The notes under the pieces are model-generated. The model had not been told where the DNA came from, ran no database searches, and saw nothing but the letters and a program-made list of their open reading frames with translations. From Candidatus Tayloriibacteriota bacterium (lineage in GTDB: Bacteria > Patescibacteriota > Minisyncoccia > Phycocordibacterales > PALSA-1337), in NCBI GenBank assembly GCA_003151615.1, contig PLXZ01000004.1, positions 173,285 to 237,284 of the forward strand: a stretch of 64,000 nt of DNA, written 5' to 3'. Within the stretch, counting starts at the first letter, position 1. Each line of letters starts with the position of its first letter. The position numbers and the translations under genes were made by a program. Below are positions 8,905-32,207 of this stretch, piece by piece.

Positions 8905-9222
8905 GGGGTTTGTTACATCAAAGTATGTAACTTTATTTCCGTTGAATCCTACTTGAACGCAAACGATAGAAGCACGATGGTCAAAGCGTTAAGAACCACC
9001 AATGCCAAAACCATTTGCCATTTTACCGGAAATGGATTCTGTAAAATATAGACTGTATAGATTATTGCAACGATCGCCGCACCAATGAAGTTTCCTTTTA
9101 TCATGTTCTCATTATATCACATCAAGTCCTATCTTGCTTCTTATGTTGAACGAAGTTAAAACCAATTTACGCAAATAAAAAAGGGCAAGGACTTTCATCC
9201 TTGCCCTCTTGAAAACGCAAAT

Positions 9223-12305: not shown

Positions 12306-12360
12306 ACGATGTTCTTTCTTTGTTGTGAACCGCTACGAGCAGTTCGATTTGCTGTCTTAG

Positions 12361-12391
12361 AATCTATTCCTTTTATGGGAAATGTCAATGA
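12361..12391 (-). promoter_or_regulatory. Family-D promoter copy 2 (TTGACA-N17-TAGATT with TTCC-N7-GGAA spacer repeat) upstream of cupin gene
   Basis: Reverse complement reads tcaTTGACAtttcccataaaaggaaTAGATT, ~50 nt upstream of the 12305 start codon. Confidence 0.5.
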
Positions 12392-12455
12392 GGGAAAATA
12401 AAAAACGCCGTACCCGAAGGTCGTGCGTTATTGTAATCAGACTAGCGGTATTTTT

Positions 12456-13013
12456 TTACTGGGCGTCCTTATAGGCGCATTCATTAGTGCAATAAACCGC
12501 GACTTGATTTGGGGGAATGGGTTTACCGCAACCTTCTCTTTCGCACTTGCGGCCCATGGGATGTGTATTTGGGGCGAACCATCCTCTGTTCTCGCACGCG
12601 GAGCACCCATGGCCGCCGCAATTGTCGCATTGGACAGAATCGGTGGGATAATTTTTATCCTTGGGAATATCCATAATGTTTCGTTCAACCACTGCTTGTT
12701 CGCTTGCCTGGCACTCTTCCACATGACGTTTGTAAGCGCGATGATGAATGTTTTTACCACACTTGGGACAGACATTGCAACATGGTGCAAAGTGCATCGT
12801 GTGACTTCCAGGTTCATGGCATGGACAATGACAGATGTCAGGGTCGGAACAACAATCATTGACAAGAGAGGGCGGTTTCATTTTTGGTTTTGCCCGGAAT
12901 TCTGCGTTGACTGCTTCCGAGGATTTTTTCCACGTCTTCGGGTCACCCAAGCCCTTAAAGGCTTCTTTGCGGGAGATGGGCCGACCACCCAGAGGAGTTT
13001 TTGGTGTGCTCAT
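12456..13013 (-). CDS. Cysteine-rich hypothetical protein (multiple CxxC/CxC pairs, probable Zn-binding)
   Basis: 185-aa ORF with >20 Cys in paired motifs (CHCPCH, CNVCPKCG, CDNCGGHGCSAC, CEREGCGK). Chosen over the overlapping ORFs 12423..13103(+) and 12437..12865(-) for protein-like composition. Ambiguous. Confidence 0.4.
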   Translation of the reverse strand: MSTPKTPLGGRPISRKEAFKGLGDPKTWKKSSEAVNAEFRAKPKMKPPSLVNDCCSDPDICHCPCHEPGSHTMHFAPCCNVCPKCGKNIHHRAYKRHVEECQASEQAVVERNIMDIPKDKNYPTDSVQCDNCGGHGCSACENRGWFAPNTHPMGRKCEREGCGKPIPPNQVAVYCTNECAYKDAQ

Positions 13014-13104
13014 GGTCTTTGTTCTGGTTTCGACTCACTACGAGTAAGTCTGTTCGCTGATTCGCATACTACAACTTATCTACTCAATAGTCAATTTTTA
13101 TAAA

Positions 13105-13197
13105 TTAATTTCGATCCCTGTTCGGGTATCCCAAAACCACCTTGATATACAATGCTGAAAAAGTGCTCCGCATGTTGAACGAAGTCAGAGCCTGTAT
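13105..13197. repeat. Composite repeat: family B (tRNA-3'-end-like TTCGATCCCTGTTCGGGTATC...) fused to family C (GCTCCGCATGTTGAACGAAGTCAGAGCCTG)
   Basis: Family B recurs at 18031 and 18942. Family C recurs at 14058 and 28421, the latter being the 3' end of the serine recombinase ORF. Confidence 0.6.
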
Positions 13198-13205
13198 TTA
13201 GATAA

Positions 13206-13235
13206 TAAAAAAGAGGCGAACCGAAGTTCGCCTCA
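13206..13235 (-). terminator. Family-T terminator hairpin copy 2 (gaggcgaaccgaagttcgcctc)
   Basis: Same loop as copy 1 with compensatory stem changes. Downstream of 13252..13626(-). Confidence 0.55.
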
Positions 13236-13251
13236 TTGAATGTTAATGTTG

Positions 13252-13626
13252 TCAGTGAGCAAGGTCAGGCCGACCGATGGGAAGAAACGCACTCCCACCG
13301 AGGATCCGGAGCCATAGGTCGGACTTAAGCGGTCCGATCCATCCCTCCGGAATCACACCGTCTGCGATGATGTCCGCCGATATTGCCTTGGCCAACTCGG
13401 CACGTGCTTCCTGGCGGCATCCGTCTTTGCCCGGCCCGGTATCAATTTCGATGCTGATGATCGAGTAGTTCACGTCGAGCGGTCCGACGTCGTGGACACG
13501 AAGCAGGACGTCTTCCATGTTCATCTTCAGATGAGTGGCGACTGCCTTGTGGGCGCTGTCGCGGATTTTTACCACCGCAGCATTGTCAGCACGACTGCGA
13601 TCTCGCCATATGGTTACGAGGGGCAT
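13252..13626 (-). CDS. Tautomerase-superfamily-like protein (Met-Pro1 N-terminus), paralog 1
   Basis: Starts MPLVTIW... (Pro1 after the initiator Met is the catalytic hallmark of 4-OT/MIF tautomerases). AGGAG RBS 6 nt upstream of this Met. The 150-aa listed ORF extends upstream without an RBS. 92% identical paralog at 15515..15889. Confidence 0.45.
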   Translation of the reverse strand: MPLVTIWRDRSRADNAAVVKIRDSAHKAVATHLKMNMEDVLLRVHDVGPLDVNYSIISIEIDTGPGKDGCRQEARAELAKAISADIIADGVIPEGWIGPLKSDLWLRILGGSAFLPIGRPDLAH

Positions 13627-13657
13627 TTTGGTCTCCTTTCTTTTGGTTGCTGGTTGA

Positions 13658-13897
13658 TTAACTTTTGGTTGACTGTGCTTTTTTGTAAGCTTCGTCATCC
13701 GCAACGGTTTCCTTGATGCCGGCAGTAAGGATGTTTAATCCCATAAGTGTCAGGATTAATCCAGACGTAGTGACTGCTTTGAATAAAACGACTATGTTTC
13801 CTGGGTTTGCTGCGTATTGGGCAATATAGGGTGCCGCAACTCCTAAGCAGTATGATCCGATGATCATCAGTGCTCCGACAACTGTTTTAATTTTCAT
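13658..13897 (-). CDS. Small two-TM membrane protein
   Basis: 79-aa ORF with two hydrophobic helices and a charged C-terminus. Confidence 0.4.
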   Translation of the reverse strand: MKIKTVVGALMIIGSYCLGVAAPYIAQYAANPGNIVVLFKAVTTSGLILTLMGLNILTAGIKETVADDEAYKKAQSTKS

Positions 13898-13937
13898 ATT
13901 TCGATTTATTTTATTGGTTGAGTTTGTTGTAATCTCT

Positions 13938-13989
13938 AGTTAGCCGTTTCCCATAAGACACTTAAATGTCCTCTGGGAAACGGCTAACA
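13938..13989. repeat. Perfect 15-bp inverted repeat hairpin (agttagccgtttccca ...20 nt... tgggaaacggctaac)
   Basis: Read directly. Lies upstream of the 13897 start codon, not in terminator position. Confidence 0.5.
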
Positions 13990-14002
13990 CCAATAGATAT
14001 GT

Positions 14003-14087
14003 CAAAAAACTACTACCATATAATAGTAGCATAATATATAGAATATGTCAAACGTTAGCTCCGTATGCTGAACGAAGTTAGAACCTG
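14003..14087. repeat. Composite repeat: family E (CAAAAAACTACTACC...ATATGTCAAAC) + family C copy 2
   Basis: Family E recurs at 16301..16372. Family C copy 2 (gctccgtatgctgaacgaagttagaacctg) is 25/30 identical to copy 1. Confidence 0.55.
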
Positions 14088-14093
14088 TTTGAA

Positions 14094-14121
14094 ATAAAAA
14101 AGACGAACCGAAGTTCGTCTC
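14094..14121 (-). terminator. Family-T terminator hairpin copy 3 (agacgaaccgaagttcgtct)
   Basis: Identical to copy 1. Downstream of 14141..14821(-). Confidence 0.55.
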
Positions 14122-14140
14122 GTGTAAAGTAATTTACGTT

Positions 14141-14821
14141 TTAACTCACTTCTGGCCATTGTTCGATAAGGGCTTCCAAAAGTTGTTCCATTTCCCACCG
14201 GCCTCCACAGTGAGGGGTAATGATCAATGAATCCAGCACGTTTTGCTCGTTTTTTCTGGATGCTAGCGTATCAAGTTTTCTCTGTTTGTCACAATCACAG
14301 GTGACCCCCACGATGAACGCACGGGGAACATCCTGTCGAAATTGCTGTAGGAATTTCAGGCAGGCATCAAATGCACTGAGGCCCATGTATGACACCAAGA
14401 GAATATTTGTATCTGTGTCAATGTTTCGCGCGATTTTATTTTCAACTTGTGCTTGGGCTTGAGCACCGATTGTTTCTTCGCGCTCAAGATACGTGGCCAT
14501 CATTTCCATGTCTGCGCGAGCCATCGCCGTGGCGCCGAATAAGAGATCAAACGGCGGTCGGTCGTCATGCCGTCCATGTGACAGGGTGATTTGCAGACCC
14601 TGTTTCCCGGGAGTAGCAAGCAGTCCATCTTCATAACTGCCGATGCCGTTGTAGCTCACAAAGATTGCACGCAGTGTTTTTTTATTGCGAATCACATTTG
14701 GCAAGATGTCGCTAATAAATTGGTCAGTGTTTTTTTGTTGGATTAAGGATGTGGTCGGCACGCTGTACCTCCGTAGTTGTTGGTTTTTGTTTAAGGGAGA
14801 AGTAAAATACTTCTCTGACAA
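14141..14821 (-). CDS. Hypothetical protein
   Basis: 226-aa ORF, protein-like composition, no motif recognised. Confidence 0.45.
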   Translation of the reverse strand: MSEKYFTSPLNKNQQLRRYSVPTTSLIQQKNTDQFISDILPNVIRNKKTLRAIFVSYNGIGSYEDGLLATPGKQGLQITLSHGRHDDRPPFDLLFGATAMARADMEMMATYLEREETIGAQAQAQVENKIARNIDTDTNILLVSYMGLSAFDACLKFLQQFRQDVPRAFIVGVTCDCDKQRKLDTLASRKNEQNVLDSLIITPHCGGRWEMEQLLEALIEQWPEVS

Positions 14822-14865
14822 TTTGAGTAAAGACTACAATATATGTTTTACTTTGTAAATAGGTG

Positions 14866-14968
14866 GCTCCCCGAACATGAGATTGTTATAACTATATTTT
14901 CCGACTTTGATTACATGAATCGGTTGTACGGACAGCTGTTGTTTATGAAGGCGATGGGGAAATAAAAA
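14866..14968. repeat. Family A repeat copy 1 (GCTCCCCGAACATGAGATTGTTATAAC...CAGCTGTTGTTTATGAAGGCGATGGGGAAATAAAAA)
   Basis: ~100-bp element, ~85% identical copies at 17208..17310 and 18089..18179, truncated copy at 18997..19020. Confidence 0.6.
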
Positions 14969-15013
14969 TCTCCCCGTAGCTTTCGCTCGTAGGAGAGTTG
15001 TGTTAAAAACAGC

Positions 15014-15361
15014 TTATTTTTTTACGGAAGTGAAAGGTTTCTTATCGGTTGAACCGTTAAGATAATCTATCCACGCGCATTGCCGAAAATAAGTTGAACG
15101 GGCATACATCGTAATGAGTTCCTCGCGCTCGACCGGCGTTTTGGCTTCGTCCAGTTTCTGTCTGGCTTCTGGCGAGAGCGATTCATTATTCATGTGATCT
15201 CGCTCTTCGTCCGTCAACATTGTTAGTCTGCGTTCAAAGTTGAGCCGGTGGAGCAGGTCATCAATACTTTCAATGCGTTCGTCTTTTTTCAATGTGTCAA
15301 GAAATGCGAGCAGCACTTCTTCAGTTTTTTGAAACTCTGCAGTTTTTGTCGGTTCACTCAT
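15014..15361 (-). CDS. Hypothetical acidic protein
   Basis: 115-aa ORF preceded by the family-D promoter. Confidence 0.45.
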   Translation of the reverse strand: MSEPTKTAEFQKTEEVLLAFLDTLKKDERIESIDDLLHRLNFERRLTMLTDEERDHMNNESLSPEARQKLDEAKTPVEREELITMYARSTYFRQCAWIDYLNGSTDKKPFTSVKK

Positions 15362-15419
15362 AAAGGTATCTTTCTTCGAAGTGCCGTTTATGGATTTTTG
15401 GCACGGTTTCCTATCCCAA

Positions 15420-15450
15420 AATCTATTCCTTTTACGGAAAATGTCAATGA
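15420..15450 (-). promoter_or_regulatory. Family-D promoter copy 3 (TTGACA-N17-TAGATT, TTCC-N7-GGAA spacer repeat)
   Basis: Reverse complement reads tcaTTGACAttttccgtaaaaggaaTAGATT, ~55 nt upstream of the 15361 start. Confidence 0.5.
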
Positions 15451-15469
15451 ATACTCATAAATGAGTATA

Positions 15470-15499
15470 AAAAAAGGGGCGAACCGAAGTTCGCCCCAT
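15470..15499 (-). terminator. Family-T terminator hairpin copy 4 (ggggcgaaccgaagttcgcccc)
   Basis: Same loop with compensatory stem. Downstream of 15515..15889(-). Confidence 0.55.
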
Positions 15500-15514
15500 T
15501 GAGTGTTGATATTG

Positions 15515-15889
15515 TCAGTGAGCAAGGTCAGGCCGACCGATGGGAAGAAACGCACTCCCACCGAGAATTCGGAGCCACAGGTCGGACTTAAGCGGTCCGA
15601 TCCATTCCTCCGGAATCACGCCATCGGCGACGATGTCCGCCGATATTGCTTTGGCCAACTCGGCGCGTGCTTCCTGGCGGCATCCGTCTTTGCCCGGGCT
15701 GGTGTCAATCTCGATGCTGATGATCGAGTAGTTAACATCTAGCGGGCCGACGTCGTGGACACGAAGCAGGACGTCGTCCATGTTCATTTTCAGGTGAGTG
15801 GCGACTGCCTTGTGGGCGCTGTCGCGGATTTTTACCACCGCAGCATCGTCAGCACGACTGCGATCTCGCCATATGGTTACGAGGGGCAT
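15515..15889 (-). CDS. Tautomerase-superfamily-like protein, paralog 2
   Basis: MPLVTIWRDRSRADDAAVV..., 124 aa, differs from paralog 1 at ~9 residues. Flanking DNA is also duplicated. Confidence 0.45.
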   Translation of the reverse strand: MPLVTIWRDRSRADDAAVVKIRDSAHKAVATHLKMNMDDVLLRVHDVGPLDVNYSIISIEIDTSPGKDGCRQEARAELAKAISADIVADGVIPEEWIGPLKSDLWLRILGGSAFLPIGRPDLAH

Positions 15890-15929
15890 TTTGGTCTCCT
15901 TTCTTTTGGGTTGTTGGTTGAAGCTTCGT

Positions 15930-16199
15930 CTAATTCAGCAGGGTAATTATACAATCGCCATTTATCATGACGATATTTCCAGTTTTGTCGTCCTGGAAAT
16001 AGTATCCGTTGCTTTGGCTTTCGTTTTCAATCTTGCCCGAGGTGGTCCACTGACCGATGAGTTTGCCTCCTGAATAGAGTTCAACTTTATGTTTTTTGCC
16101 CCAAGCTGAGAAGGCCGCTCGGTTTGCGTTTGAGCAACCGGATAGCATACCCAAACTTAACCCGGCAACCAGTATCATCAGACTAATTTTAAGTTTCAT
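15930..16199 (-). CDS. Lipoprotein
   Basis: Internal start MKLKISLMILVAGLSLGMLSGC gives a signal peptide with lipobox L-S-G-C. Confidence 0.45.
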   Translation of the reverse strand: MKLKISLMILVAGLSLGMLSGCSNANRAAFSAWGKKHKVELYSGGKLIGQWTTSGKIENESQSNGYYFQDDKTGNIVMINGDCIITLLN

Positions 16200-16300
16200 T
16201 TTTTTCCTATTTTTGTAGTTGGTGTGCAAACCAAACTTGGCTGCATCTTTCAAGGCTCGAATAAGCCCTCAAAGACGCAGCCAATTTAATAGGGGAATTT

Positions 16301-16372
16301 CAAAAAACTATTACGTAACTATGATAGCATAAGATATAGTATATGTCAAACACGAGCTTCCCGAACGGGAAT
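16301..16372. repeat. Family E repeat copy 2 followed by GCTTCCCGAACGGG (degenerate GCTCC-core site)
   Basis: caaaaaactattacgtaactatgatagcataagatatagtatatgtcaaac parallels 14003-14057. Confidence 0.5.
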
Positions 16373-16449
16373 AAAAAAGGCCGCGCACTTAAGATGGCAC
16401 GGCCTTGGATATTTTGATTGAGGTTGTTTGACCCGCCTTGAGAAGATTG

Positions 16450-17112
16450 TTAATGGCAACCACCACTGTAGTGATAGACAGCTGCCTTTTCCCCCAACTG
16501 TTCTTGAATGTTACGATCCTCACAGATTGCAATGTCAACAATTTTGCCTTCGTAATGCGCTTTACGATACTCGTTGGCAGGCACGACTTGATATTTATTC
16601 CAAACAATCATTACAAGGTCTGCATTGCCGGTGTATTTATCTTTTTTGCCGAGCCATAGGACCTGATTGAATCCGAGTTTGTTAACCCCCTTTTTTGAAA
16701 GACTATTCTTTTTTGTCATAGTCTTTAGAATCTCTGCGGCAGGTATTTCCTCAGGAAAAAACAAATCCGTCGGGACTGCATTGTCTGGGAGTCGATCCAA
16801 GGTTTTTCCGACAGAAAATTTTTTTTCGCTCGGAACAATCGCATATAGCACAGGAGAGAATGGACTGTCACCATTGTAATCCTCAGGTCGTGACAATGCT
16901 AAGGTTGAATGACCTGCCGCGGGGCCAGTATGATGAATGTTTATCCCGTCGATCACCAGACCGCCGGAAGGTAGTATGAGTCGTTTCACTGGTCCAGATT
17001 GATATGATTTCCGCCAAGATTCAGGGCTTTTAGTTTCGTTTTTCATAAATTCTTTCGAAGTTCTTTGTTTCAAACCCCTAATTAGGTGGTTCAGATTTAC
17101 TGATGTGAACAC
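16450..17112 (-). CDS. Hypothetical protein
   Basis: 220-aa ORF. No motif recognised. Confidence 0.4.
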   Translation of the reverse strand: MFTSVNLNHLIRGLKQRTSKEFMKNETKSPESWRKSYQSGPVKRLILPSGGLVIDGINIHHTGPAAGHSTLALSRPEDYNGDSPFSPVLYAIVPSEKKFSVGKTLDRLPDNAVPTDLFFPEEIPAAEILKTMTKKNSLSKKGVNKLGFNQVLWLGKKDKYTGNADLVMIVWNKYQVVPANEYRKAHYEGKIVDIAICEDRNIQEQLGEKAAVYHYSGGCH

Positions 17113-17207
17113 TACAATATAAATATTAAAGAGTCAATAATTCGTAATGGTTCGAATCCCATTCTGGGTACGAAAAAAGACCCATATAAATGGTTCTTTT
17201 TTCACAT

Positions 17208-17310
17208 GCTCCCCGAACATGAGACTATTATAACCATATTTTCAGACTTAGATTACATGAGTCGGTTGTATAGTCAGCTGTTGTTTATGAAAGCGATGGG
17301 GAAATAAAAA
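17208..17310. repeat. Family A repeat copy 2
   Basis: gctccccgaacatgagactattataaccatattttcagacttagattacatgagtcgg... Preceded at 17140-17168 by a tRNA-3'-end-like fragment ggttcgaatcccattctgggta. Confidence 0.55.
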
Positions 17311-17358
17311 ACCGCCCAACAAAGTGCCGTTGGGTCGGCTTTTGAATATGGACGGGGT

Positions 17359-17598
17359 TTAACTACGCTCGATGACTTTAGCGGTAACGACTGATGTAGG
17401 AGGTCTTTCAAAAACTGAATCAGGCACTTCAAACTCTACCGTCACGACCGCTCGATCTTTGGGTTGAGACAGGTAGCCTTCACCGTAATGTTCTTGATTA
17501 TGTTCTTCAGATTGTTTCAACAACTCATCAATCCATTGTGAAGCCGCAATAGCCTTGTTGTAACCCTTTGAAACTTCGATATGCGCTGTAACTTTCAT
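17359..17598 (-). CDS. Hypothetical small protein
   Basis: 79-aa ORF. Confidence 0.4.
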   Translation of the reverse strand: MKVTAHIEVSKGYNKAIAASQWIDELLKQSEEHNQEHYGEGYLSQPKDRAVVTVEFEVPDSVFERPPTSVVTAKVIERS

Positions 17599-17638
17599 TG
17601 ATAGTATCCTTTCTTTTTGTTTCTAGTTTAAATACTGG

Positions 17639-17971
17639 TTAGCAACAACCGCCACCGCCTGAGCAATGGCCTCCAGTTGCCCGAATGTATCGGCGAAGCG
17701 AGTCAGTGTCATAATCCTCACCGCCGATTGCTCCTGCATATACTTGTATTTTAGCATCAGGGGCTTGCAGATGTTGGACGCTGTGTTTGTAGGGTGTCTG
17801 CTTTATAAGCGACTTCCAGTTATCCAAGAGTTTTTCTTTATCATCAGACCATGTGACAAAGTTTATTTCACCCGTCCCGCATTTACAGGAGAGAGAATGT
17901 TGATATCCACGTAGGTAGGCGTTCACCTCTGGACTCCTTCCACAACGGCAGGGAATTGGTGTCATATTCAT
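17639..17971 (-). CDS. Hypothetical Cys-rich protein ending CSGGGGCC
   Basis: 110-aa ORF with CRCG...CKCG and a C-terminal Cys/Gly cluster. Confidence 0.4.
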   Translation of the reverse strand: MNMTPIPCRCGRSPEVNAYLRGYQHSLSCKCGTGEINFVTWSDDKEKLLDNWKSLIKQTPYKHSVQHLQAPDAKIQVYAGAIGGEDYDTDSLRRYIRATGGHCSGGGGCC

Positions 17972-18030
17972 AATTTTGTTTTCAAGTTGTCTGATTCAAA
18001 GATTACCTCTAACTGATTAAAAGTCAATCA

Positions 18031-18179
18031 ATTTCGATCCCTATTCGGGTATCGCAAAACCACGTTGATATACAAGGCTGAAAAAAGTGCTCCCCGAACA
18101 TGAGATTGTTATAACCATATTCTCGGATGTGGATTACATGAATCGACTGTATGGTCAGCTGTTGTTTATGAAGGCGATG
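18031..18179. repeat. Composite repeat: family B copy 2 + family A copy 3
   Basis: atttcgatccctattcgggtatcgcaaaaccacgttgatatacaaggctgaaaaaagtGCTCCccgaacatgagattgttataacc... Confidence 0.55.
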
Positions 18180-18346
18180 TCAGTATGACTTGCAAGGACT
18201 TGCTTTTATACCATATATGTGATATAATTAAGCCAGTAATCCTTAATCGTATGGTTAAGTCGTTTCGGTACCCTTTGGGTATGTGAAATAAGGGGGTATG
18301 TGTTTTCCTCCACTAAGACACAAGTTCATTGGAAAGAAATTAACGT

Positions 18347-18880
18347 ATGTTAAAAGACTACATCATCATCAACGGCCCTCCGAAGTTCGAACTCATGCTC
18401 GCTTTATTCCATACTGCGAATATTGTGTTCAAAACTGAATGCGGTCAGGTCATCACTGTAATGGTAACCCAGGTCAAAAAACTTAACGACGATGGCCACG
18501 ACGCTTGGAATATCAGGGGCTTCATCATTTTGGATGACGGAGACTATCGGAAAGATAGTCACGAATGCAGAGCCATTTTCTCCAGCAAAAACCGTAAAGG
18601 TAAGCTGACAGACCTCGGTCTGAAAAACATGAAGTTCGAGCCTGAATACCTTGAACGTCTGTCTGATGACCAACTTCGGAAGAGGGTCGCTTCTGACCAG
18701 AAAATTGCAGAACATTTCAAGGCTATACTCGATCAATACATGTGCGGACTCAATCCCCGTGATCGGTTGATTGCGGAAGTTATTGCCGCGCAGGAGTTGG
18801 CCTTGGTGACGATGGATATTCAGTCCAAACACAGCAAATATACTAATGACCGTTCACGTAACACTGCGATTGCAGCGTAA
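18347..18880 (+). CDS. Hypothetical protein
   Basis: 177-aa ORF, the only plus-strand gene in the cassette region. Confidence 0.45.
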   Translation: MLKDYIIINGPPKFELMLALFHTANIVFKTECGQVITVMVTQVKKLNDDGHDAWNIRGFIILDDGDYRKDSHECRAIFSSKNRKGKLTDLGLKNMKFEPEYLERLSDDQLRKRVASDQKIAEHFKAILDQYMCGLNPRDRLIAEVIAAQELALVTMDIQSKHSKYTNDRSRNTAIAA

Positions 18881-18896
18881 GTGCGACAGACATTTG

Positions 18897-18937
18897 TAAT
18901 TAAAACGGCGACCAGAAATGGTTGCCGTTTTTTTATT
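18897..18937 (+). terminator. Rho-independent terminator
   Basis: aaaacggcgaccagaaatggttgccgttttttt hairpin + T7. Confidence 0.6.
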
Positions 18938-18941
18938 ACTT

Positions 18942-19020
18942 GAGTTCGATCCCTGCTCGGGTGCTCGAAAACTGTGTTGATACACAAGGTTGAAAAAAGT
19001 GTTCGCCGAACATGAGAGGA
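18942..19020. repeat. Family B copy 3 + truncated family A (gttcgccgaacatgagagg)
   Basis: gagttcgatccctgctcgggtgctcgaaaactgtgttgatacacaaggttgaaaaaagtgttcgccgaacatgag. Confidence 0.5.
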
Positions 19021-19042
19021 AGATACTCTGACGCATTAGCCT

Positions 19043-19626
19043 TTAACCAACTTGTCTGATCCAATCTCGGATAAACATGCCCACTCGTTCAATATCAGTC
19101 GGTGCTAGTTCACCACTATGCATGATAATATTTCTTGATTTTTCCAAAGTTTCAATTATTTGCTTTGCCCACTCCACTTTACCAACGTGCACTTCAAAAA
19201 ATTTCCAATTTTCAGGCTTAGCCATGATAGAGATGAGGTCTCCAAATTCAGTGTAATAAATCATTGAATCACCCCTAGCGGTAAGCCAGCGAACATCTTT
19301 TTCTGACTTTTTTCTATTCTCTGCATTAGTCCTGATTTCTTTCTTTACACATAAATCCCACCAATTTTCACCTTTTTCTTCAAGAAGTTTTTTAGCAATA
19401 AACTCTCTTACTGAATTTTCAAAGGAACAGATAGCAGTATACACAACTGCCATTCGTCTCGATTTTACAACGAATTCCTCGTCCATAAGCGGAAGACCTA
19501 GTCGTTTAGATGTTTCTGCTTCCCATACTTCGGAGAAATCACCCTTTGACTTTCTACCAGCCTTATCTAAAGCCTCTTCGGTTAAAAGCCCCCTAAAGGT
19601 AAAAGAATATAATCGGTTAGAATCCA
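19043..19626 (-). CDS. HEPN-domain protein (C-terminal Rx4H motif)
   Basis: C-terminus ...EKSRNIIMHSGELAPTDIERV carries the R-x4-H HEPN signature. Internal Met MDSNRLY chosen because the upstream partner ORF ends at 19629 (abutting genes). Confidence 0.45.
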
Positions 19627-19628
19627 TA

Positions 19629-20279
19629 TTAAAACAGATGTTTTTTAAGGCTTTTAAATAGTGCGTCGTATACAGCGGCATCCCTTGATTCCGGTAGGTG
19701 AATTTGGATATTGTAATGCAATTCTGTCTTACGTAGTTTCCCACCGACACTATCCTCGTCTGTGTCTTCCTGTGCGGCAGGTGGAGTCTCTTTTGCGGAC
19801 TCAGGCTTTTGATTGTCATTCTTCTCTTTACCGCCCTGAACTTTTTTTGCTGTATTACTCCACTCAGCATAAGCGGCAAGAGTCACGAATGTATTAGCCA
19901 TTAAATGCAAAACCTTATCTGAAATTTTACCTTGAGTTAATGTTCTAAGTTTGTTTTTGACTTCTGACTGCGTAAGTTCGTTTGCCTTTGTGTTAACAGC
20001 GAATAAATCCCCATATGCTACAGTAATCGCATTTGCCAAGACTTGTTTAGATTGAGATTGATCTAAAAAGTTGAAATATATTTCTGTTGGTACAGCATTG
20101 GCATCTAGAAACCCCAATCCTTTAAGTAGTCCTATGTACAGACGGTCATTTGTACTTTTAAACTCAAGACTTTCTAGGAATTTCTGCGTAAAGGTCTCAG
20201 GCGCTTTCGCCGTAATTAGACTGTTAAAAAATGACTCAAGATTTTTTGTCGTAACCAAATATGAGGGTGTAAGTGCCAT
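19629..20279 (-). CDS. Hypothetical protein, upstream partner of the HEPN gene
   Basis: Start at MALTPSYLVTTKNLESFF..., stop abuts the HEPN start. Two-gene operon. Confidence 0.4.
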   Translation of the reverse strand: MALTPSYLVTTKNLESFFNSLITAKAPETFTQKFLESLEFKSTNDRLYIGLLKGLGFLDANAVPTEIYFNFLDQSQSKQVLANAITVAYGDLFAVNTKANELTQSEVKNKLRTLTQGKISDKVLHLMANTFVTLAAYAEWSNTAKKVQGGKEKNDNQKPESAKETPPAAQEDTDEDSVGGKLRKTELHYNIQIHLPESRDAAVYDALFKSLKKHLF

Positions 20280-20724
20280 AAAAGTATTGTTATTTATATA
20301 GCGGAAATATACCATGTACAAATAAAAAAACAATACGGTAAAATTAAGTCAATTTACCTTATTTTTCGCTTCTATCGCTCAAGAATAAATGGTATAATAC
20401 AGGGTAGAAAGTGAACTATCTGTCGATTTTTCCTTAAATGCCGTTTCTGATAAAAATCAAATAGATTCATTATCAAAGTTTGCTAATCAAAAATTAAAAT
20501 CATCATGAAGAAAACAATCATTCTCAATAGAAGTGCTGTAACAGGAAAAATAGTTACAAAGGCGTATGCGAAGAAGCATCCGCGCACTACCGAACGAGAG
20601 GTCTACAAAGTTAAGAAATAAGTACATAAATGATATCGCTGTCGGAAACGGCATTTAGGGAAAAATAACATAAAGACATACTTTCCATTAGGCTTTTGCA
20701 GAGGAATGCCAGCACGAGCGATTT

Positions 20725-21249
20725 CTACGCGTTGAGCGCAGTATTTGCGTAGTAGTTTAAGTCTTCTAGCGTAATACCTGCTCGCCGTATGATTAGATAC
20801 TTGTCCTCTGATGAAAAATAGGTCTTCCGAAGCATTCTTGAAAACGTCCGTGCCTTGTATGTCGGTGCTTCATATTTCAGTCGGCAACAGACACGACAGA
20901 GGGGTGATTCAAGAGTGCTGTATTCGTAGAGGTGCTTTGCTCGTCTTTCACAACCATTGCAGATAAAGTAAAAAATGAAGCCACGCCTTAGGTTTGAGGG
21001 TACGTAGTCCACTTTTTGTTCGTTCCAATATGGAATGCCGTCATTGAAAACAGCTATTGATTTAAATGTCGTATATCGTGGATTGTTCAATAGCCCTTTC
21101 ATATACGAAACTTCGCCCTCATGGTTTGTGTTGAGTATACGACCTTCTTTTTCTCTGATGTTTATTTTGAAGTTTCTTACATAGTCGCCAATAGTGAAGC
21201 GCAGATATCCGCTACTGTTAAATATTTTTTTGTGTTGAGAGATCCTCAT
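20725..21249 (-). CDS. Hypothetical protein with CxxC...CxxCC cluster
   Basis: 174-aa ORF, FICNGCERR...CRVCCRLKY. Confidence 0.4.
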   Translation of the reverse strand: MRISQHKKIFNSSGYLRFTIGDYVRNFKINIREKEGRILNTNHEGEVSYMKGLLNNPRYTTFKSIAVFNDGIPYWNEQKVDYVPSNLRRGFIFYFICNGCERRAKHLYEYSTLESPLCRVCCRLKYEAPTYKARTFSRMLRKTYFSSEDKYLIIRRAGITLEDLNYYANTALNA

Positions 21250-21316
21250 AATCGTTAATGAACGCTAATGAGTTTAATATTATTCGGATCTGATTTTTTA
21301 CACAACCGACAGGAAG

Positions 21317-22060
21317 TTAGTATATGTTTGAAGGAAAAACACCCGTATACTGATTACCAAAATCATCAACGCAAGTAACCTTAAAATCATATAATGAGCC
21401 AGCTATGTCCACACCTTCACCGTTGGGACTGGTTCCAAAAGTGATAGTATGTTTTTCTGTGGCGGTGTTCGCATAGGTAGTTTGGCTATAAGGCACATCT
21501 GCGCTACCACCAGCCCATGTCCATGTGCATGTTGAGGTGTTTCCGCTCGGTATTGATAGAGAAAAGCCATACTGGCCGTTATAAAATTCCGATACTTGTA
21601 CAGTCGTCGCATTAACTTTTGTATTAGGCTGAACGTCAGTAACAGGATTGTCCGTAGCTGTATTTGAATTCGTAATCGGTGACGGAGAATAATTTTCGGA
21701 GTTAACGATAGAAATTGTTAAAACTATAAGGGCAAATACTCCCCAGAAAATGTATACGGGTCTGAATCTATTTTTCTGTCGGACGACTGTAGCATAAGGT
21801 TTTGATGATTGATTGTCATCATCTGTATCGAAATCTTCTTGCTGTGTAGTGTTAAATGTCTGGTCATAGTGTGTTTTGCTTTTTTCATTAGAAAGTACGC
21901 GGTATGCTTCGTTGACCTCTTTGAATCTTTTTTCGTTACCATTATTTGTGTCAGGGTGATATTGGAGCGCGAGTATCCGATAGGCTCTTTTTATATCTTC
22001 AGTGGAAGCGTCACGAGGAATTCCTAGAATTTCGTAGTAGTCTTTTTTCATGGTTTTCAA
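21317..22060 (-). CDS. J-domain (DnaJ-like) membrane protein
   Basis: [33 protein letters not shown] with the HPD tripeptide. Central TM helix ([15 protein letters not shown]). Confidence 0.6.
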
Positions 22061-23058
22061 TTACCGAACATATATGATAATTGGTACTGATCTGCGATTT
22101 CTCCTGCTGAATTGATTTGTCCCAGAATACACCCGTTTGTTAGTGAAACAGCCGTACTACCTTGCATACCGTTTGGTATTGCTATGTTGGTTGAATCATA
22201 ATATCCTGACGCACTTGTGATATTGCCAGTAAGCATTAGACTGGTTGAATTTGGTGGCCAGCCAACAACCACTACGGAATCACCGACTGAGCCGCGTGTT
22301 GAGCAATAGTTTTGTAGATTTGTCGTAAGGGCATGAGTTGCGAGGTAATTATTTGATGTATCAATCATGATTTGTGCAAAATCAATACCCGCATTACTGA
22401 CGAGATTTATTATTTGACTTTGACCGATGTCAGAACCGACGGTAAAGGTTGATAGGCCTCCTCCATAAAGTGAAGCTCCTGCTGGGAAAGAAACAGTACA
22501 CGAGCCAGGCAGTATTTGATAACCAGCATAAGACGTATTTGTTACTGCTCCTAGAACTGTATTTATAAAGTAATTTCCACCTGTATACTGGCCAAGAAGA
22601 CCATTTCCGCTTTCTGAAAAAAGAACGTTGCCATAACGGTTATAGTAATTGCAAGTAAAGAAAGCGAGTTCTGGGGAGAGTTTGGTAGCGAGTATATTCG
22701 CAGAATAATTATTTTGTGGCTGAACAGAATTTGTTGATGGTAGAATTGCGTTTGTTGTATTTTTAGGAGTATTAACTTGACCAGTTAAATCAGCGTTGAT
22801 TGCGGTGCGTGTTAAAGAGCCGACATATCCCGTTGGCGATATACTATTTGCAGACTGGAAATTTTCTACAGCCTGTTGCGTCAATGAGTAGAAATTTCCT
22901 GTTGCCGAGCCTTGAAGGTATCCGTTACTAATCAAAAACTGTTGAAGTTCAGTTACTTGTTCTCCAGTTGAACCATAGCTTAAATTAGAGTTGATTGAGG
23001 CATATGACACAAGAGGAGCGGCGAGAAATATGACTGTTCCTATTATTATTTTTTTCAT
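22057..23058 (-). CDS. Secreted protein with N-terminal peptidoglycan-binding (PG_binding_1-like) domain
   Basis: Signal peptide. [20 protein letters not shown]...[16 protein letters not shown] matches the PG-binding repeat pattern. 4-nt overlap with the upstream J-domain gene. Confidence 0.5.
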
Positions 23059-23060
23059 AT

Positions 23061-23792
23061 TTATTGCGATATATTCATCGTATTAGTAACTGCACCCAAA
23101 GATTGAAGTTGTCCCTCAAGTGCGTTTCGATACGCTGTTATGGTGCTATGAAGCGTTGATGTTGAAGTCGTTGGTTGTAGGCCAGCGGTAGCTGTTACAT
23201 ACCACTCTCCGAGCGTATTAGGAAAAAGAGGCGTGCCGTCTAATCTCATGGAGCTATTGAGAACAGAAAGAAGTGTTGTGGTTCCGGTGAGGCCATTAAC
23301 TGCAGTATTGTTACCATTAAATTGCAGAGGCGCATTGTCTATATCGAAATCAATCTGTGTGAGGGCGGCTAATTCTTCGTTGATGCCCTGAATCTTTGCG
23401 TTATTTGTTGCGCTTGCCGTGGTAGCTGACTGTGTATTCGTGCTAGCGGAGCTTAATTGCCCTTGGCATAAGGCGTACTGCGTTTGCGCCTTTGCAAGCT
23501 GTTGCGTAAGGCTTGTTATGTCCGCTTCTTCCGTCGGATCCTTAACCGTCTGCGTCGTCGTTTTCGTTATGACTGTAGGAGTTTGCGATGTCGTGCTTGC
23601 AAGTTCGACCTGTAGCTGTGATATTTCAGTGTTCTGCTGATTGATTGTTTCGGTAAGGGCCACTGTTTCCGATGATGAAGCGGTTACTGAAACGGAGCTT
23701 TGACTAAACCATGTCGTTGGATTCCACCAAGCGGCGAAAGCGATTGACGGAATGAATGCTAGGCCTATGGGTGCGATAAAATATTTTTTCAT
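23061..23792 (-). CDS. Secreted coiled-coil protein
   Basis: Signal peptide. Heptad-like Q/T/L-rich region. Confidence 0.45.
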   Translation of the reverse strand: MKKYFIAPIGLAFIPSIAFAAWWNPTTWFSQSSVSVTASSSETVALTETINQQNTEISQLQVELASTTSQTPTVITKTTTQTVKDPTEEADITSLTQQLAKAQTQYALCQGQLSSASTNTQSATTASATNNAKIQGINEELAALTQIDFDIDNAPLQFNGNNTAVNGLTGTTTLLSVLNSSMRLDGTPLFPNTLGEWYVTATAGLQPTTSTSTLHSTITAYRNALEGQLQSLGAVTNTMNISQ

Positions 23793-23863
23793 TTGATTTT
23801 TTATTATTAAATTTCAACCGACGTTATCCTTATATTAAATACTACGCTTCAAAAAATAAACCT

Positions 23864-24472
23864 CTACGTCGGCAAGGTCTTGTTTTTTGAAAGCCAATTT
23901 TCCATACGATTTTCAAATGTCATAAGCTCCCACTGGGCTAAACTCGCGTTCTCATTTTTCGCTTTCTTCTTGCAAATATCCATGGCCTTTATGTACTCTT
24001 TTTCTGTAAATTCACCTTTTGTCCATTTTGGGCCTTCCCAAGCAATTTTATTTAGAATAATTGAATCTATCACGCAGTGCAGAGGTTCATCTTTTTTGAA
24101 ATTAAACACCCATAGGTATTTAAGATAGAGATTGAGAAGTTTTTGTACTCTGCCGAAAGTGATTTTGTTGTTATTCAAAATGTCGATATATACCGATTTG
24201 TTTATTTTTTGTTGAAAGTCATTGAGGAGTTCAATATACTCTTCGTCCGTATTAGGAATTTTTTCTGAAAATTTTTCAAGCTGTTCCGATAAATAATCTC
24301 TAAATTTCATCCGCTTATTTGGGTCGGCGTTCAGTTTGTAAGTGGAGTAGCCTCTTATTAACGCCGCTTGGAAAACCAAAGAAGAGATTTCTTTTTTGGC
24401 GAATTCTATTTTTTTGAATTCTATTGATTGCATACAAAAAGCCCACCACAGGTAGAGGCCTAAGCCTCTCAT
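23864..24472 (-). CDS. Hypothetical protein
   Basis: 202-aa ORF, Lys-rich. Confidence 0.4.
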   Translation of the reverse strand: MRGLGLYLWWAFCMQSIEFKKIEFAKKEISSLVFQAALIRGYSTYKLNADPNKRMKFRDYLSEQLEKFSEKIPNTDEEYIELLNDFQQKINKSVYIDILNNNKITFGRVQKLLNLYLKYLWVFNFKKDEPLHCVIDSIILNKIAWEGPKWTKGEFTEKEYIKAMDICKKKAKNENASLAQWELMTFENRMENWLSKNKTLPT

Positions 24473-24752
24473 ATCAGTTTCCCAATATGGCGAGTTAAGC
24501 GACCCTATGATGGGTTTTTTATGCTTAACTCGACTTTCTTCACCATGCCATTGGATTACTCAAATGGTTTAGGCTACTTCTAACATATTCAGTTGTGGCC
24601 TAATCATACAATAAACGCCAATATCTGCAATGGTGATTAAATCAGAGCAAGCGCAGGACAAAGTTCTTTTTGTGAGGTAGTATATTTCTATGCGGACACA
24701 GGTTTACAGCTGTTAGAGCCGAGTTTTAAGCGAAAGAGCCACCTATAAAGAT

Positions 24753-25343
24753 ATGAAAAAGTTATCAAATAAACCCATTTCGGATCCGTCGCACGACACG
24801 GAGAAAAAAGATAACAAAATTGAAGCGGTGGTTTTAATTGCCTACGTACGTGAGACATATGGGGAACCAAGGCTTGCTCTTTATGTATTAAACTCAATTA
24901 TCGGTAAACGTATTAAGAAATTTACTAAAGAGAAGTGGGGTATAGCGAAATTTATCGCAGAAAGAACTTCCTATATTTCTGTCGAAGAAGATTATGATGT
25001 TGATGTTGAAAAAGGGGATTGGGGTCTTCCAGTAATGATGGGCGCGGCACGACCGATAAATGTTGATATTCTAGATAAAAATAATTTATCATTGCTTAGA
25101 CAGGAAGTTAAGACTTTTTTTGACAACATATCAAATTTTGTTTCAAGCACTAATAGACCAAGATGGGTTTGCCAAAAATGTGGCAGATTTTTAGGAAAAG
25201 AACTTTCGTCTGCTAGCGAAGTGAAAAAATTATTGAGGGATTTTAGTATGGGAAAATATCACAAGTGTCGTTCATGTCCAACAAATAATTACTTCACTTT
25301 CAATTCTGACGGTATCGTTTTCCACAGTAAACCGATTGACTAA
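24753..25343 (+). CDS. Hypothetical protein with C-terminal zinc-ribbon (CQKCG...CRSC)
   Basis: 196-aa ORF. Confidence 0.45.
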   Translation: MKKLSNKPISDPSHDTEKKDNKIEAVVLIAYVRETYGEPRLALYVLNSIIGKRIKKFTKEKWGIAKFIAERTSYISVEEDYDVDVEKGDWGLPVMMGAARPINVDILDKNNLSLLRQEVKTFFDNISNFVSSTNRPRWVCQKCGRFLGKELSSASEVKKLLRDFSMGKYHKCRSCPTNNYFTFNSDGIVFHSKPID

Positions 25344-25723
25344 TACGGTATTTCGTGTATAGTAGCACCAGCTCATTAACGTCTGAAATATCTGAAGGCA
25401 CGGGATGTGTCCGTAGGAAATTGTATCTGTTTTGCAGGTAACTCACAGAGGTGGGCTGTAGAAGCCAGAACAATGAATAGCAGTCTTGACGACTGGTGTT
25501 TATTGTTTTGGCTTTTTTCGTTCCAAAAAACGAATTATCAAAAATAAACTACGGACTTTTCTGAGCTTTAACAGCTTTAGAAAACTACAATTACAAAAGA
25601 AGAAAATAACAAGCCCACCCAAGATGCGGCTCGTCAGTTTGCATCTCTGATAGTGGCACTCATTCAGGAAATTAGCTTCAGCGAAAAAATAGAAAAATCG
25701 GACGTTAGAAATTAAAAAATCCC

Positions 25724-26203
25724 ATGAATCCAACAAACATTGAAAGTAAAATAGAACAGCCTCAAAAATCAAAAATTATAAGTTCTCCACAATTATCGAA
25801 TCAAATGCCAGCCATAAAAGAAAGCGACATCGGTTGGCTTGAACACATGGACATTGACGTCATGCACTTCAGCTTTCTCTCGGGCGTCGGAAGCCATTTC
25901 GGACTTAAAACCCTCGACGTCGCGATTATTTGTTGCATTTGGATTTTTTCCAAACGTAAAGGGTTCTGTTACTTGAGTAAGGAGAGAATGGCCGTCTTAG
26001 TCTGCACGAATCCAGTGAGCCTCTATCAGCATCTTGGAAGTCTTAAAAAAAAGCAATATATTGAGCAATCAGAAAAAACAATGGGCAGAGTCACTTTGTT
26101 ACGCCTATCTCCTGAAGTCCAAGATTACGTAAACCGCACAAAATCGGAAATCGACAAACGAAGAGAACGGAACAAAAAATCGAGCAAAAATAATGGGTAC
26201 TAA
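25724..26203 (+). CDS. Hypothetical protein (possible winged-helix DNA-binding, phage-like)
   Basis: 159-aa ORF with a basic C-terminus. Confidence 0.4.
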   Translation: MNPTNIESKIEQPQKSKIISSPQLSNQMPAIKESDIGWLEHMDIDVMHFSFLSGVGSHFGLKTLDVAIICCIWIFSKRKGFCYLSKERMAVLVCTNPVSLYQHLGSLKKKQYIEQSEKTMGRVTLLRLSPEVQDYVNRTKSEIDKRRERNKKSSKNNGY

Positions 26204-26433
26204 AGAATCCGTGGGAGTAATACTAAAGAATCTTTAGACCATAATGAATCCCATATTGAATTAAATAATAATTATTGTATCAACCCTCAAATGCGGATCC
26301 GAATGCGATAAAAATGCTCCCCTAAATGCATGAATTCAATCACGGATCCGTTCCGTCGGTGCGCATAAGTCTGGTTGATTTACCTCTCGACAGTTTATAA
26401 AATAAAAACATCAATATTATCTACTGTAAAGAG

Positions 26434-26622
26434 ATGTATCAAAAACCCATAGCCAAAATCAACGAGATAAAAGCCTTGCTCAAAGCAGGTCAAATCTCAT
26501 TCGATGAGGCCAAGGCGTTAGCGTCTCCGCTCATTAAGGAAATGGAAGCCTCTGCGGAAAAGGTTGCGAAGAAATTTCGCCGACCTGCTCCAAAGTTCAG
26601 CTTCACTGCTTTAATGAGATGA
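26434..26622 (+). CDS. Small hypothetical protein
   Basis: 62 aa, stop overlaps the next start (ATGA). Confidence 0.35.
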   Translation: MYQKPIAKINEIKALLKAGQISFDEAKALASPLIKEMEASAEKVAKKFRRPAPKFSFTALMR

Positions 26623-26822
26623 AAAAATCTATCAAAAAGTACGAAGTCTCATTAACAGAAATTAAGCACGGACATGTCGTCGTCGAAGCTAAAAGCTACG
26701 ACGAGGCTACCCGAATAGCATTACAAAATTACCACCAAGGCGAAGTAACTATGGGCGATACGCCCGACATTGAAACGAAAGCGGTCAAAGAAATACCGCC
26801 CATAGGATTTTTGCCTCACTAA
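26619..26822 (+). CDS. Small hypothetical protein
   Basis: 67 aa, translationally coupled with the upstream gene and immediately upstream of the recombinase. Confidence 0.35.
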   Translation: MKKSIKKYEVSLTEIKHGHVVVEAKSYDEATRIALQNYHQGEVTMGDTPDIETKAVKEIPPIGFLPH

Positions 26823-26837
26823 AAAATATATAAAATT

Positions 26838-28457: not shown

Positions 28458-28534
28458 ACCTAAGATCAGCTTTCTAGGAGGCCTTTCCACAGATCCGAGT
28501 ACCGCATATTGGTTATCTCTGTTAAAATACTGGT

Positions 28535-30525: not shown

Positions 30526-30526
30526 C

Positions 30527-32128: not shown

Positions 32129-32207
32129 TCATAAACTCGGATGCTACTTAATTTTATTGACCACATAAACAGGAAGTTCTTGAGCTGGAAGGTATAATAA
32201 TAAAAAA

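Follow-up and report, generated by a model that had tools for sequence, protein, structure and literature searches.

A 64-kb stretch (the window) of the 563-kb contig PLXZ01000004.1, from a Candidatus Tayloriibacteriota bacterium of the Patescibacteria, carries between 9.1 and 44.8 kb a tandem array of small gene units and two larger elements that meet at a recurring 5-nucleotide (nt) core. This array is very probably an accretion island, formed by serial site-specific integration of small elements beside the 3′ end of a tRNA-Asn(GTT) gene by two families of large serine recombinases (LSRs), LSR-A and LSR-B, each with its element-side attachment site (attP) within the reading frame of the recombinase gene. 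The anatomy of the array, the homology of its parts, the coding signature of its repeats and their recurrence in other genomes are directly observed. The distribution of repeats was assessed inside the window, and loci designated L007, L009, L063 and so on are fetched loci of other genomes or metagenomes.

Ten junctions exchange their halves at a common core

Ten junctions, S1 to S10, are found from 9136 to 44747, all on the + strand, and their anchored alignment reveals a common GCTCC core, with the variants GCTTC at 9136 and 16356 and GTTCG at 19001. Around this core lie four repeat families, which a first-pass annotation made from the sequence alone had already listed together with the shared core. 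Direct-repeat analysis, alignment and pattern searches recover them within a few bases of those places: family A (about 110 nt, 77–88% identity) at 14866, 17208 and 18089, family B from about 13107–13110, 18030–18033 and 18942–18945, family C at 13165, 14058 and 28421, and family E at 13999 and 16297. They add a fourth, C-like copy at 9136 and a truncated family A copy whose core starts at 19001, not 18997. The 17-mer GCTCCCCGAACATGAGA, which forms the first bases of family A, occurs four times with at most 2 mismatches, where shuffled sequence predicts 0.01 copies, and the 21-mer opening family C occurs four times with at most 3 mismatches (0.00 expected). All family copies are on the + strand and confined to 9.1–28.5 kb of the window.

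The left and right halves of the junctions swap partners exactly at the GCTCC core, giving the combinations (left/right) B/C, B/A, E/C, E/A, LSR/C and LSR/tRNA. Partner exchange at a single point is the hallmark of site-specific recombination. From left to right, the features are as follows, with EY and EZ denoting the two recombinase-bearing elements, and attL and attR the left and right ends of an integrated element.

9136..9178 (+): S1 (x/C), core GCTTC and C-like orphan tail (LLMLNEVKTNLRK, stop); leftmost junction detected, left of pyrB; 3 mismatches to the C 21-mer, 0 expected
13107..13164 (+): S2 left arm, type B; tRNA-3′-end-like block TTCGATCCCTGTTCGGGTA, then an A-rich spacer
13165..13201 (+): S2 (B/C), core GCTCC and orphan C tail (LRMLNEVRACI, stop)
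13252..13897 (−): cargo of unit U2, genes of 124 and 79 aa, no family match; terminator 13213–13234, promoter 14023–14051
13999..14057 (+): S3 left arm, type E; holds a minus-strand promoter, TTGACA-N17-TACTAT, and a short inverted repeat
14058..14097 (+): S3 (E/C), core GCTCC and orphan C tail (LRMLNEVRTCLK, stop)
14141..14821 (−): cargo gene of unit U3, up to 226 aa
14866..14965 (+): S4 (promoter/A), core GCTCC and intact orphan A tail (LPEHEIVITIFSDFDYMNRLYGQLLFMKAMGK, stop); right-hand (P′) arm of an LSR-A-type element
15014..16199 (−): cargo of unit U4, genes of 115, 124 and 89 aa; the 124-aa gene is a paralog of 13252..13626
16297..16380 (+): S5, E arm 16297–16355, core GCTTC at 16356, A tail with internal deletion (CCGAAC joined to GGGAATAAAAAA)
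16450..17046 (−): cargo gene of unit U5, 198 aa
17148..17207 (+): S6 left arm, x6; GGTTCGAATCCCATTCTGGGTAC, then a bidirectional terminator hairpin; looks like a bacterial-side (B) arm
17208..17307 (+): S6 (x6/A), core GCTCC and intact orphan A tail
17359..17971 (−): cargo of unit U6, genes of 79 and 110 aa
18030..18188 (+): S7 (B/A), B arm 18030–18088, core GCTCC at 18089, intact orphan A tail to 18188
18347..18931 (+): cargo of unit U7, a 177-aa gene and terminator
18942..19031 (+): S8 (B/truncated A), attL of EY; B arm, core GTTCG at 19001, truncated A tail (FAEHERKIL, stop)
19001..28420: element EY, 9.4 kb, LSR-A-bearing
28421..28457 (+): S9, where the 3′ body of LSR-A meets a C tail, core GCTCC 28421–28425; attR of EY and left end of EZ
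28421..44746: element EZ, 16.3 kb, LSR-B-bearing
44747..45091 (−): S10 and target (LSR-B body/tRNA), core GCTCC 44747–44751, antisense of the last bases of tRNA-Asn(GTT)

The region singled out by the first-pass annotation includes a site near 16358, now recognised as an A-type tail with an internal deletion, while LSR-B and the integration target lie outside it. The remaining repeats of the region are minus-strand promoters (TTGACA-N16/17-TAnnnT) and intrinsic terminators, with families D4, D5 and D7 among them, which makes each unit a self-contained transcription unit.

The right halves are detached recombinase gene tails

Family C had been reported as identical to the 3′ end of the LSR open reading frame (ORF) at 26838..28457, here LSR-A; it comprises the last 12 codons and stop of that gene. 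Other C copies retain the peptide LRMLNEVR and change mainly at third codon positions, as in the S3 tail, which differs from the 28421 copy by four synonymous codons and one non-synonymous codon. Read in the LSR frame, family A is open for 32 codons in all three full copies, with the same stop position, and the other two frames are closed. Between the A tails of S4 and S7 there are eight synonymous changes and one non-synonymous change. Open frames and synonymous-biased substitutions show that families A and C evolved as protein-coding 3′ ends, which rules out simple repetitive extragenic palindromic (REP)-like elements for these families.

Family A is the orphaned tail, the last ~32 codons, of LSR-A-type genes, and forms the element-side arm of their attP. 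Family C, judging by its sequence, is most readily understood as the orphaned tail of the LSR-B family, and its fusion to LSR-A would have come about through the neighbouring insertion of an LSR-B element. That the right halves are coding, detached recombinase 3′ ends goes beyond the first-pass annotation, which had read CGAACATG and CATGTTGAACG as inverses; each is part of a different coding tail, and both are read in the same frame. Its proposal of att-like sites for the recombinase at 26838..28457 is borne out in so far as these are serine recombinase att half-sites, but C appears native to the LSR-B family, and the arm proper to LSR-A is A.

Local segmental duplication, in which intergenic modules (promoters, terminators, REP-like sequences) are copied in place and play no part in site-specific recombination, would account for some of the repeats. 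A 300-nt segment is doubled at 92% identity (13207–13506 and 15470–15769), making 13252..13626 and 15515..15889 paralogs where all cargo ORFs had been described as mutually unrelated; D4, D5 and D7 are terminators or promoters; and promoter family D5 also precedes a housekeeping-type gene at 10053. As an explanation of the array it is highly improbable. The synonymous-biased coding tails largely refute it for families A and C, the halves swap exactly at a 5-nt core equal to a tRNA 3′ end, the copies all lie on one strand within 9.1–28.5 kb, and the same junction architecture is present at LSR elements in dozens of unrelated genomes.

LSR-A homologs probably carry attP inside their reading frame

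LSR-A is a 539-aa protein with Resolvase (PF00239, E=5.6e-26) and Recombinase (PF07508, E=4.2e-15) domains, and many of its homologs also contain PF13408. It shows the features of a large serine recombinase (PF07508, a zinc ribbon and a length above 450 aa), which are weaker in LSR-B. The nearest solved relatives are the TP901-1 integrase for LSR-A and the SPbeta integrase for LSR-B, with the match confined to the catalytic domain. Scanning ~60 ORFs across the window gave no Phage_integrase or other tyrosine recombinase match, in agreement with the first-pass annotation, which saw no tyrosine IntI. At least 412 LSR-A homologs were found, and those with a taxon label all belong to Patescibacteria. 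IMG/VR offers only distant relatives (at most 30% identity), so these are not known viruses, and a viral origin was dropped.

The homologs share a conserved body end near ..VI(I/L)xxxxL(R/P), followed by one of three classes of tail: translations of an antisense tRNA 3′ end (for example RGQDSNLRP), C-type tails and A-type tails. In 27 of 43 genome loci, the LSR reading frame reaches, by ARAGORN, into the 3′ end of a tRNA gene on the other strand (Asn, Lys, His, Phe or Arg), and several further loci have an antisense T-arm but an intron-split tRNA or a contig end. An orphan A-type tail (PE..IITILSD..YM..LY.KLL.IK) occurs on the same strand 5–10 kb upstream of the LSR in 18 of the 43 Patescibacteria loci, marking the other end of the element.

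Comparison of the two ends of single elements shows that attL and attR have just 4–7 nt in common, in at least ten loci. These cores are GCTCC at tRNA-Asn, TGTCC or TGTGC at tRNA-Lys, TGTCCCC at tRNA-Arg and GGGT at tRNA-His, every one of which reproduces, in antisense, the final bases of its target tRNA. A conserved GTTATAWWA lies ~20 nt to the left of the core (P arm), and a mirror motif, ATTATAAC, ~20 nt to its right (P′ arm). A short attL/attR core within an attP of imperfect dyad symmetry is characteristic of serine integrases. Together, the core shared with the tRNA end, the mirrored motifs and the upstream orphan tails indicate that attP consists of the recombinase's own 3′ end with its native tail, and that integration detaches the tail. 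Recombination of this attP with a bacterial site (attB) by LSR-A and LSR-B is predicted.

Locus L007 offers a direct view of this arrangement. Its element is syntenic with 19043–28457 of the window; at its left end, an upstream LSR-B-type gene reads in frame into an A tail, the LSR-A-type gene runs into an antisense, intron-split tRNA, and a full A tail occupies the position equivalent to S8, directly before HEPN_Swt1. Since the order of LSR-A and LSR-B is reversed relative to the window, either family can insert beside the other.

An intron-split tRNA-Asn gene anchors the array

LSR-B (42981..44759, 566–592 aa) has a resolvase-type domain (PF00239, E=2.6e-19) and Cys clusters visible in its sequence; PF07508 is seen in some of its homologs only. 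At least 779 LSR-B homologs were found, in which a body ending in ..FEPE..PTLL is followed by the same three tail classes. Among 120 listed homologs, 14 carry C-type tails (long forms including ALLNDFRTFDWAEEYKYP) and one an A-type tail. The C-type is thus the common non-tRNA tail class of LSR-B homologs, and tail classes track recombinase families.

The stop codon of LSR-B overlaps GCTCCGGGAGTAGGGATCGAACC, the antisense of the 3′ exon of tRNA-Asn(GTT). This minus-strand gene has its 3′ exon to ~44792, a group I intron at 44793–45067 in the anticodon loop, and its 5′ exon to ~45091. ARAGORN reported no tRNA over the window, which initially spoke against a tRNA target; an Rfam group I intron match and manual reading overturned this, the intron in the anticodon loop being the reason that ARAGORN missed the gene. 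The element boundary at 44747–44751 coincides with the tRNA 3′ end, as in the 27 related loci above. The same intron-split tRNA target is present in L007 and L020.

Beyond tRNA-Asn follow S30AE, fmt, priA and EPSP synthase genes. L007, L148 and L149 have the same tRNA neighbourhood, with LSR-B-family elements at the same tRNA-Asn, and an uninterrupted tRNA-Asn is found at the same junction in L009, L148 and L149. According to its gene table, a relative with a 78% identical pyrB has 4.8 kb and no recombinase between pyrB and S30AE-fmt-def-priA, compared with 33.5 kb here, which marks the array as inserted DNA. Five other relatives lose homology directly behind the pyrB terminator and have differing genes beyond it, on contigs that stop short of the tRNA.

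Several observations concern the pyrB side. The genes after pyrB are of defence type and include GmrSD in one pair of relatives and a methyltransferase with MutH in another (L054, L055 and L150–L153). A ATTATTATAAC-like motif resembling a P′ arm lies downstream of pyrB in L152 (for example at 10931–11000), L153 and L055, and the terminator of pyrB may itself serve as a junction's left arm. In three relatives, a ~505-aa serine recombinase beside a REP_ORF2-G2P replication-protein gene, 4–5 kb left of pyrB (L054 3987–5495, L150 5213–6736, L152 4002–5525, minus strand), marks a different small integrated replicon in this neighbourhood.

Seven units lack a recombinase

To the left of EY lie seven units of 0.8–4 kb, each made of a tail, one to five genes (mostly on the minus strand), its own promoter and terminator, and a left arm. 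Searches of ten unit proteins against Pfam, PADLOC, PHROGs and NCBIfam gave nothing above threshold, and tblastn found no homologs of the small-unit cargo across all fetched loci. The paralogous 124-aa proteins begin with MPLVTIW, and their proline at position 2 is reminiscent of tautomerases. A 47-nt promoter module, TTGACA-N16-TAGATT with a conserved spacer, recurs at 10053–10099, 12345–12391 and 15404–15450; it is common to an IMP cyclohydrolase-like gene and two array units, and may be a common operator or a copied promoter.

The left arms are of three kinds. The E arm and the S4 arm are cargo promoters, the E type of S3 also abutting GCTCC in L056 and L063, and a second kind consists of recombinase 3′ ends. 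The B and x6 arms begin with a tRNA-3′-like block, GTTCGAWTCC..GGGTA, inverted with respect to the target, followed by A-rich sequence and hairpins. The S2 B arm agrees with the arms at 18030 and 18942 in 54 and 44 of 59 positions and also matches arms in L065, L063 and L067. Single elements in L009, L020, L027, L031 and L045 have a left flank built in the same way: x6 matches the attL left arm of the single element of L020, also at an intron-split tRNA-Asn, in 47 of 60 positions, and the L009 block is identical to its own tRNA-Asn 3′ end in 22 of 22 nt. These matches to tRNA 3′ ends and single-element flanks give the B and x6 arms the look of a bacterial-side arm, that is, of the tRNA terminator region. 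No E or B arm copy was found inside an intact element; every copy abuts a core.

We also considered the B arm as a decayed LSR-B 3′ end, since LSR-B encodes RFEP as GGTTCGAACC and L040 shares ACGTTGATAWACAAG. This was rejected as the main explanation because the block fits tRNA 3′ ends better (~18 of 22 for tRNA-Arg in L027, besides L009), and it is further weakened by FEP being a conserved protein motif.

The same T-loop/acceptor-like block, and its 22-nt identity in L009, could instead point to islands of tyrosine integrases, with B arms as displaced tRNA 3′ halves and the serine recombinases as bystanders. We regard this as very unlikely: the blocks are inverted relative to the target tRNA and have no accompanying 5′ tRNA half, the scanned ORFs contain no tyrosine recombinase, and the swap point is the GCTCC core, 35–45 nt away from the block.

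Similar arrays occur elsewhere. A metagenome scan with the A-site 26-mer yielded 12 loci, among them L063, with at least five junctions in 5.4 kb, and L065, with three in 9.5 kb; no recombinase is in view in either. The E and B arm types recur in them next to the core, 62–81% identical to the window copies; their partners are A tails except in one case, where a third kind of right arm follows. Two orphan tails are also present in each of L031 and L002, and the junctions met outside the window comprise E/A, B/A, LSR-3′/A and E/other. A third type of coding left arm, which ends in ..PFNL..E.ASRPNW, abuts GCTCC and an A tail in L063 (oriented 1949), L067 (122) and L022 (1346); it may be the 3′ end of another gene family using the same site.

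Dense arrays with no nearby recombinase (L063, L065), conserved unit ends around unrelated cargo, and E and B ends that recur in metagenomes with other partners exactly at the core would also suit a dedicated cassette-capture platform, a serine analogue of the integron. There, a resident LSR would insert and excise small circular cassettes at its own 3′ end, with a B or E arm plus an A or C tail acting as attC; the orphan tails are intact and in frame, and an upstream LSR would regain a full tail. The first-pass annotation had left the choice between such a cassette-capture locus and repeated tandem insertions by a serine recombinase. We favour the latter and consider the platform improbable. 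The array lies upstream of LSR-A, with 8 kb of element genes between, whereas capture at the 3′ end would extend it downstream. Both LSRs stand at the edges of their own discrete mobile elements, which are single in most genomes, and every unit brings its own promoter and terminator. The array is anchored not on a recombinase but on a tRNA gene, 26 kb to the right of the region described in the first-pass annotation, and no cassette circle has been observed.

Under serial integration, the recombinase-less units may have two origins. We lean towards units mobilisable in trans or together with a neighbour, favoured by the conserved ends, unrelated cargo and partner swapping; they would move by recombinase supplied in trans, or by excision from an upstream attL along with a recombinase-bearing neighbour. 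Somewhat less probably, they are leftovers of site-specific deletions.

Cargo of the two intact elements

EY contains HEPN_Swt1, DUF5343, DnaJ-domain and PG_binding genes, a LOOT RNA, a small plus-strand core module and LSR-A, and is syntenic with L007 and L040. The HEPN_Swt1–DUF5343 pair lies at 19043–20279 (−) in the window, 3321–4554 in L007 and 1309–2545 in L040. Between EY and L007, protein identity is 94% for HEPN_Swt1 and 85% for DUF5343 but 59% for the LSRs. This much closer likeness of the cargo pair suggests that it is a module exchanged recently between elements.

EZ contains two D12 methyltransferases, an AlwI-like endonuclease, a NUDIX protein, a 1148-aa protein, a LOOT RNA and LSR-B. 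The D12-class adenine methyltransferases and the endonuclease form a restriction-modification module at 28535–32128 (+), straight after the junction at 28421.

LOOT RNA (Rfam RF03000) is present in both window elements, at 24454–24575 (−) and 38436–38556 (+), and in all six other LSR-A-family elements checked:

L007: 7540–7661
L009: 7518–7634
L020: 7351–7468
L031: 7904–8022
L039: 7454–7568
L040: 8109–8231

In LSR-A elements it always lies 1.8–2.7 kb upstream of the recombinase start, on the opposite strand, so LOOT appears to be an RNA carried by these elements.

A model for growth of the island

We propose that the P arm of LSR-A is coding sequence, that crossover takes place in the short core, which matches the tRNA's final bases in antisense (GCTCC for tRNA-Asn), and that the P′ arm encodes the last ~32 residues of the enzyme. 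Integration would then fuse the recombinase body to a few antisense-tRNA codons or to the tail of a neighbouring element, leaving the native tail orphaned at the far, left end of the element. The B, x6 and E sequences would be the left arms that stood beside the tRNA when the following element arrived. Newcomers would insert next to the tRNA, pushing older elements leftwards. EY and EZ, the two rightmost elements, are intact, and LSR-A would carry a C tail because EZ entered between EY and the tRNA. The order of arrival, any present activity and the origin of the recombinase-less units are inferred from the arrangement.

Several points weigh against this history. Four bacterial-type arms lie in the array where one per chromosome is expected, and their tRNA-like block is left unexplained; perhaps each unit brings a mimic of this arm, so that a usable attB is regained once the unit has inserted. 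Tandem growth needs an enzyme that accepts varied left arms, as we infer here, whereas canonical serine integrases recombine only attP with attB. The assignment of C to LSR-B draws on one complete element, EZ, and on tail statistics, and no orphan C tail was found upstream of the LSR-B elements in L148 or L149 (in L149, within 10 kb upstream). The array is known from sequence, with no excised circular form found and no empty-site reads or single-cassette polymorphism between strains to hand, and its repeat distribution was read in 64 kb of the 563-kb contig. Finally, the left boundary is uncertain, as the pyrB and IMP cyclohydrolase genes, both of housekeeping type, separate the C-like relic at 9136 from the rest of the array.

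Discussion

In staphylococci, SCC and SCCmec (staphylococcal cassette chromosome) elements use the large serine recombinases CcrAB or CcrC at one site, the 3′ end of the conserved gene rlmH. Repeated integration there produces tandem composite islands, including pseudo-SCC units that have no recombinase and can be moved by that of a neighbour. The array described here is alike in its LSR insertion at one gene 3′ end, its tandem structure and its recombinase-less units bounded by a repeated site, and it fits a composite island of this kind: tandem units at one site, comprising ten junctions, two LSR-bearing elements and seven recombinase-less units. It differs in that the target is the tRNA-Asn 3′ end and not rlmH, that the repeats correspond to the 3′ end of the recombinase gene and not to that of the target gene, owing to the position of attP within the recombinase frame, that two unrelated LSR families use one site, and that the host belongs to the Patescibacteria. 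By this analogy the window array would be a functional counterpart of SCC islands, not a member of them.

In streptococcal accretion-mobilisation, integrative and conjugative elements (ICEs) and cis-mobilisable elements (CIMEs) rely on a tyrosine recombinase and true direct repeats, and the autonomous elements are conjugative. The likeness lies in recombinase-less units that are bounded by att sites, form tandem arrays with an autonomous element and are capable of mobilisation in cis; no conjugation genes were seen here. The nearest parallel to the partitioned gene is found in the integrases of SSV1-type archaeal viruses, tyrosine recombinases with attP inside the gene. Integration splits and destroys those genes, whereas the serine recombinase here is shortened by no more than its final ~32 codons, and a substitute tail keeps the frame open.

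Integron arrays likewise consist of short units with unrelated cargo, mostly in one orientation, and of sites whose halves come from different cassettes; the cassettes are mostly promoterless, and each ends in an attC site. Here, however, there is no IntI and no stationary integrase with attI and Pc. Each unit brings a sigma-70-like promoter and an intrinsic terminator, a tRNA gene serves as anchor, and the junctions, as judged by sequence with attC folding unassessed, are hybrid double-stranded att arms around GCTCC and not folded attC sites. Tycheposons of Prochlorococcus insert site-specifically at tRNA genes, with newcomers pushing older elements inward and leaving remnants and cargo; 910 of 937 have tyrosine recombinases and a minority LSRs, and unit boundaries are partial tRNA copies (bioRxiv 10.1101/2020.12.28.424599). 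Serial integration at a tRNA and displacement of older elements are common to both. In our array, the boundaries are instead orphaned recombinase tails with a 5-nt core, and the tRNA is not duplicated at the junctions, as expected of a serine recombinase with a very short crossover region.

In the literature, we found neither an attP placed within the frame of a serine recombinase nor a description of these elements, for serine recombinases or Patescibacteria. The array stands apart from the systems above in having an attP with a conserved, detachable tail inside a serine recombinase frame, and two families that share a site and exchange tails.

More tentatively, the placement of attP in the frame of two widespread Patescibacteria integrase families may act as a switch of enzyme state, with the recombinase-less units as true cassettes. 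The long form, with its conserved tail of ~32 residues, could come solely from an excised element or from one with a tail-bearing unit downstream of it, and the short form from an element integrated at a tRNA; toggling between them could provide built-in directionality or a state switch. A true-cassette unit could bring a replacement tail on one side and a bacterial-arm mimic on the other, regenerating a usable attB after insertion. If so, this would be a serine-recombinase cassette system convergent with integrons and SCC, and an integrase C-terminus that changes with integration state would be a natural experiment on directional control.

The genomes of Patescibacteria are tiny, few mobile elements have been described in them, and genetic tools are almost absent. 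Our results suggest that much of the accessory DNA of these bacteria, including restriction-modification systems, HEPN modules and many genes without a known function, is moved by two large recombinase families by way of a small number of tRNA hot spots. LOOT RNA, an orphan family, gains a genomic setting through its carriage on these elements. The LSR-A and LSR-B families are new candidate tRNA-specific serine integrases, and because their att sites can be read from sequence (recombinase 3′ end, orphan tail and tRNA 3′ end), they may guide the design of integration vectors for Patescibacteria.

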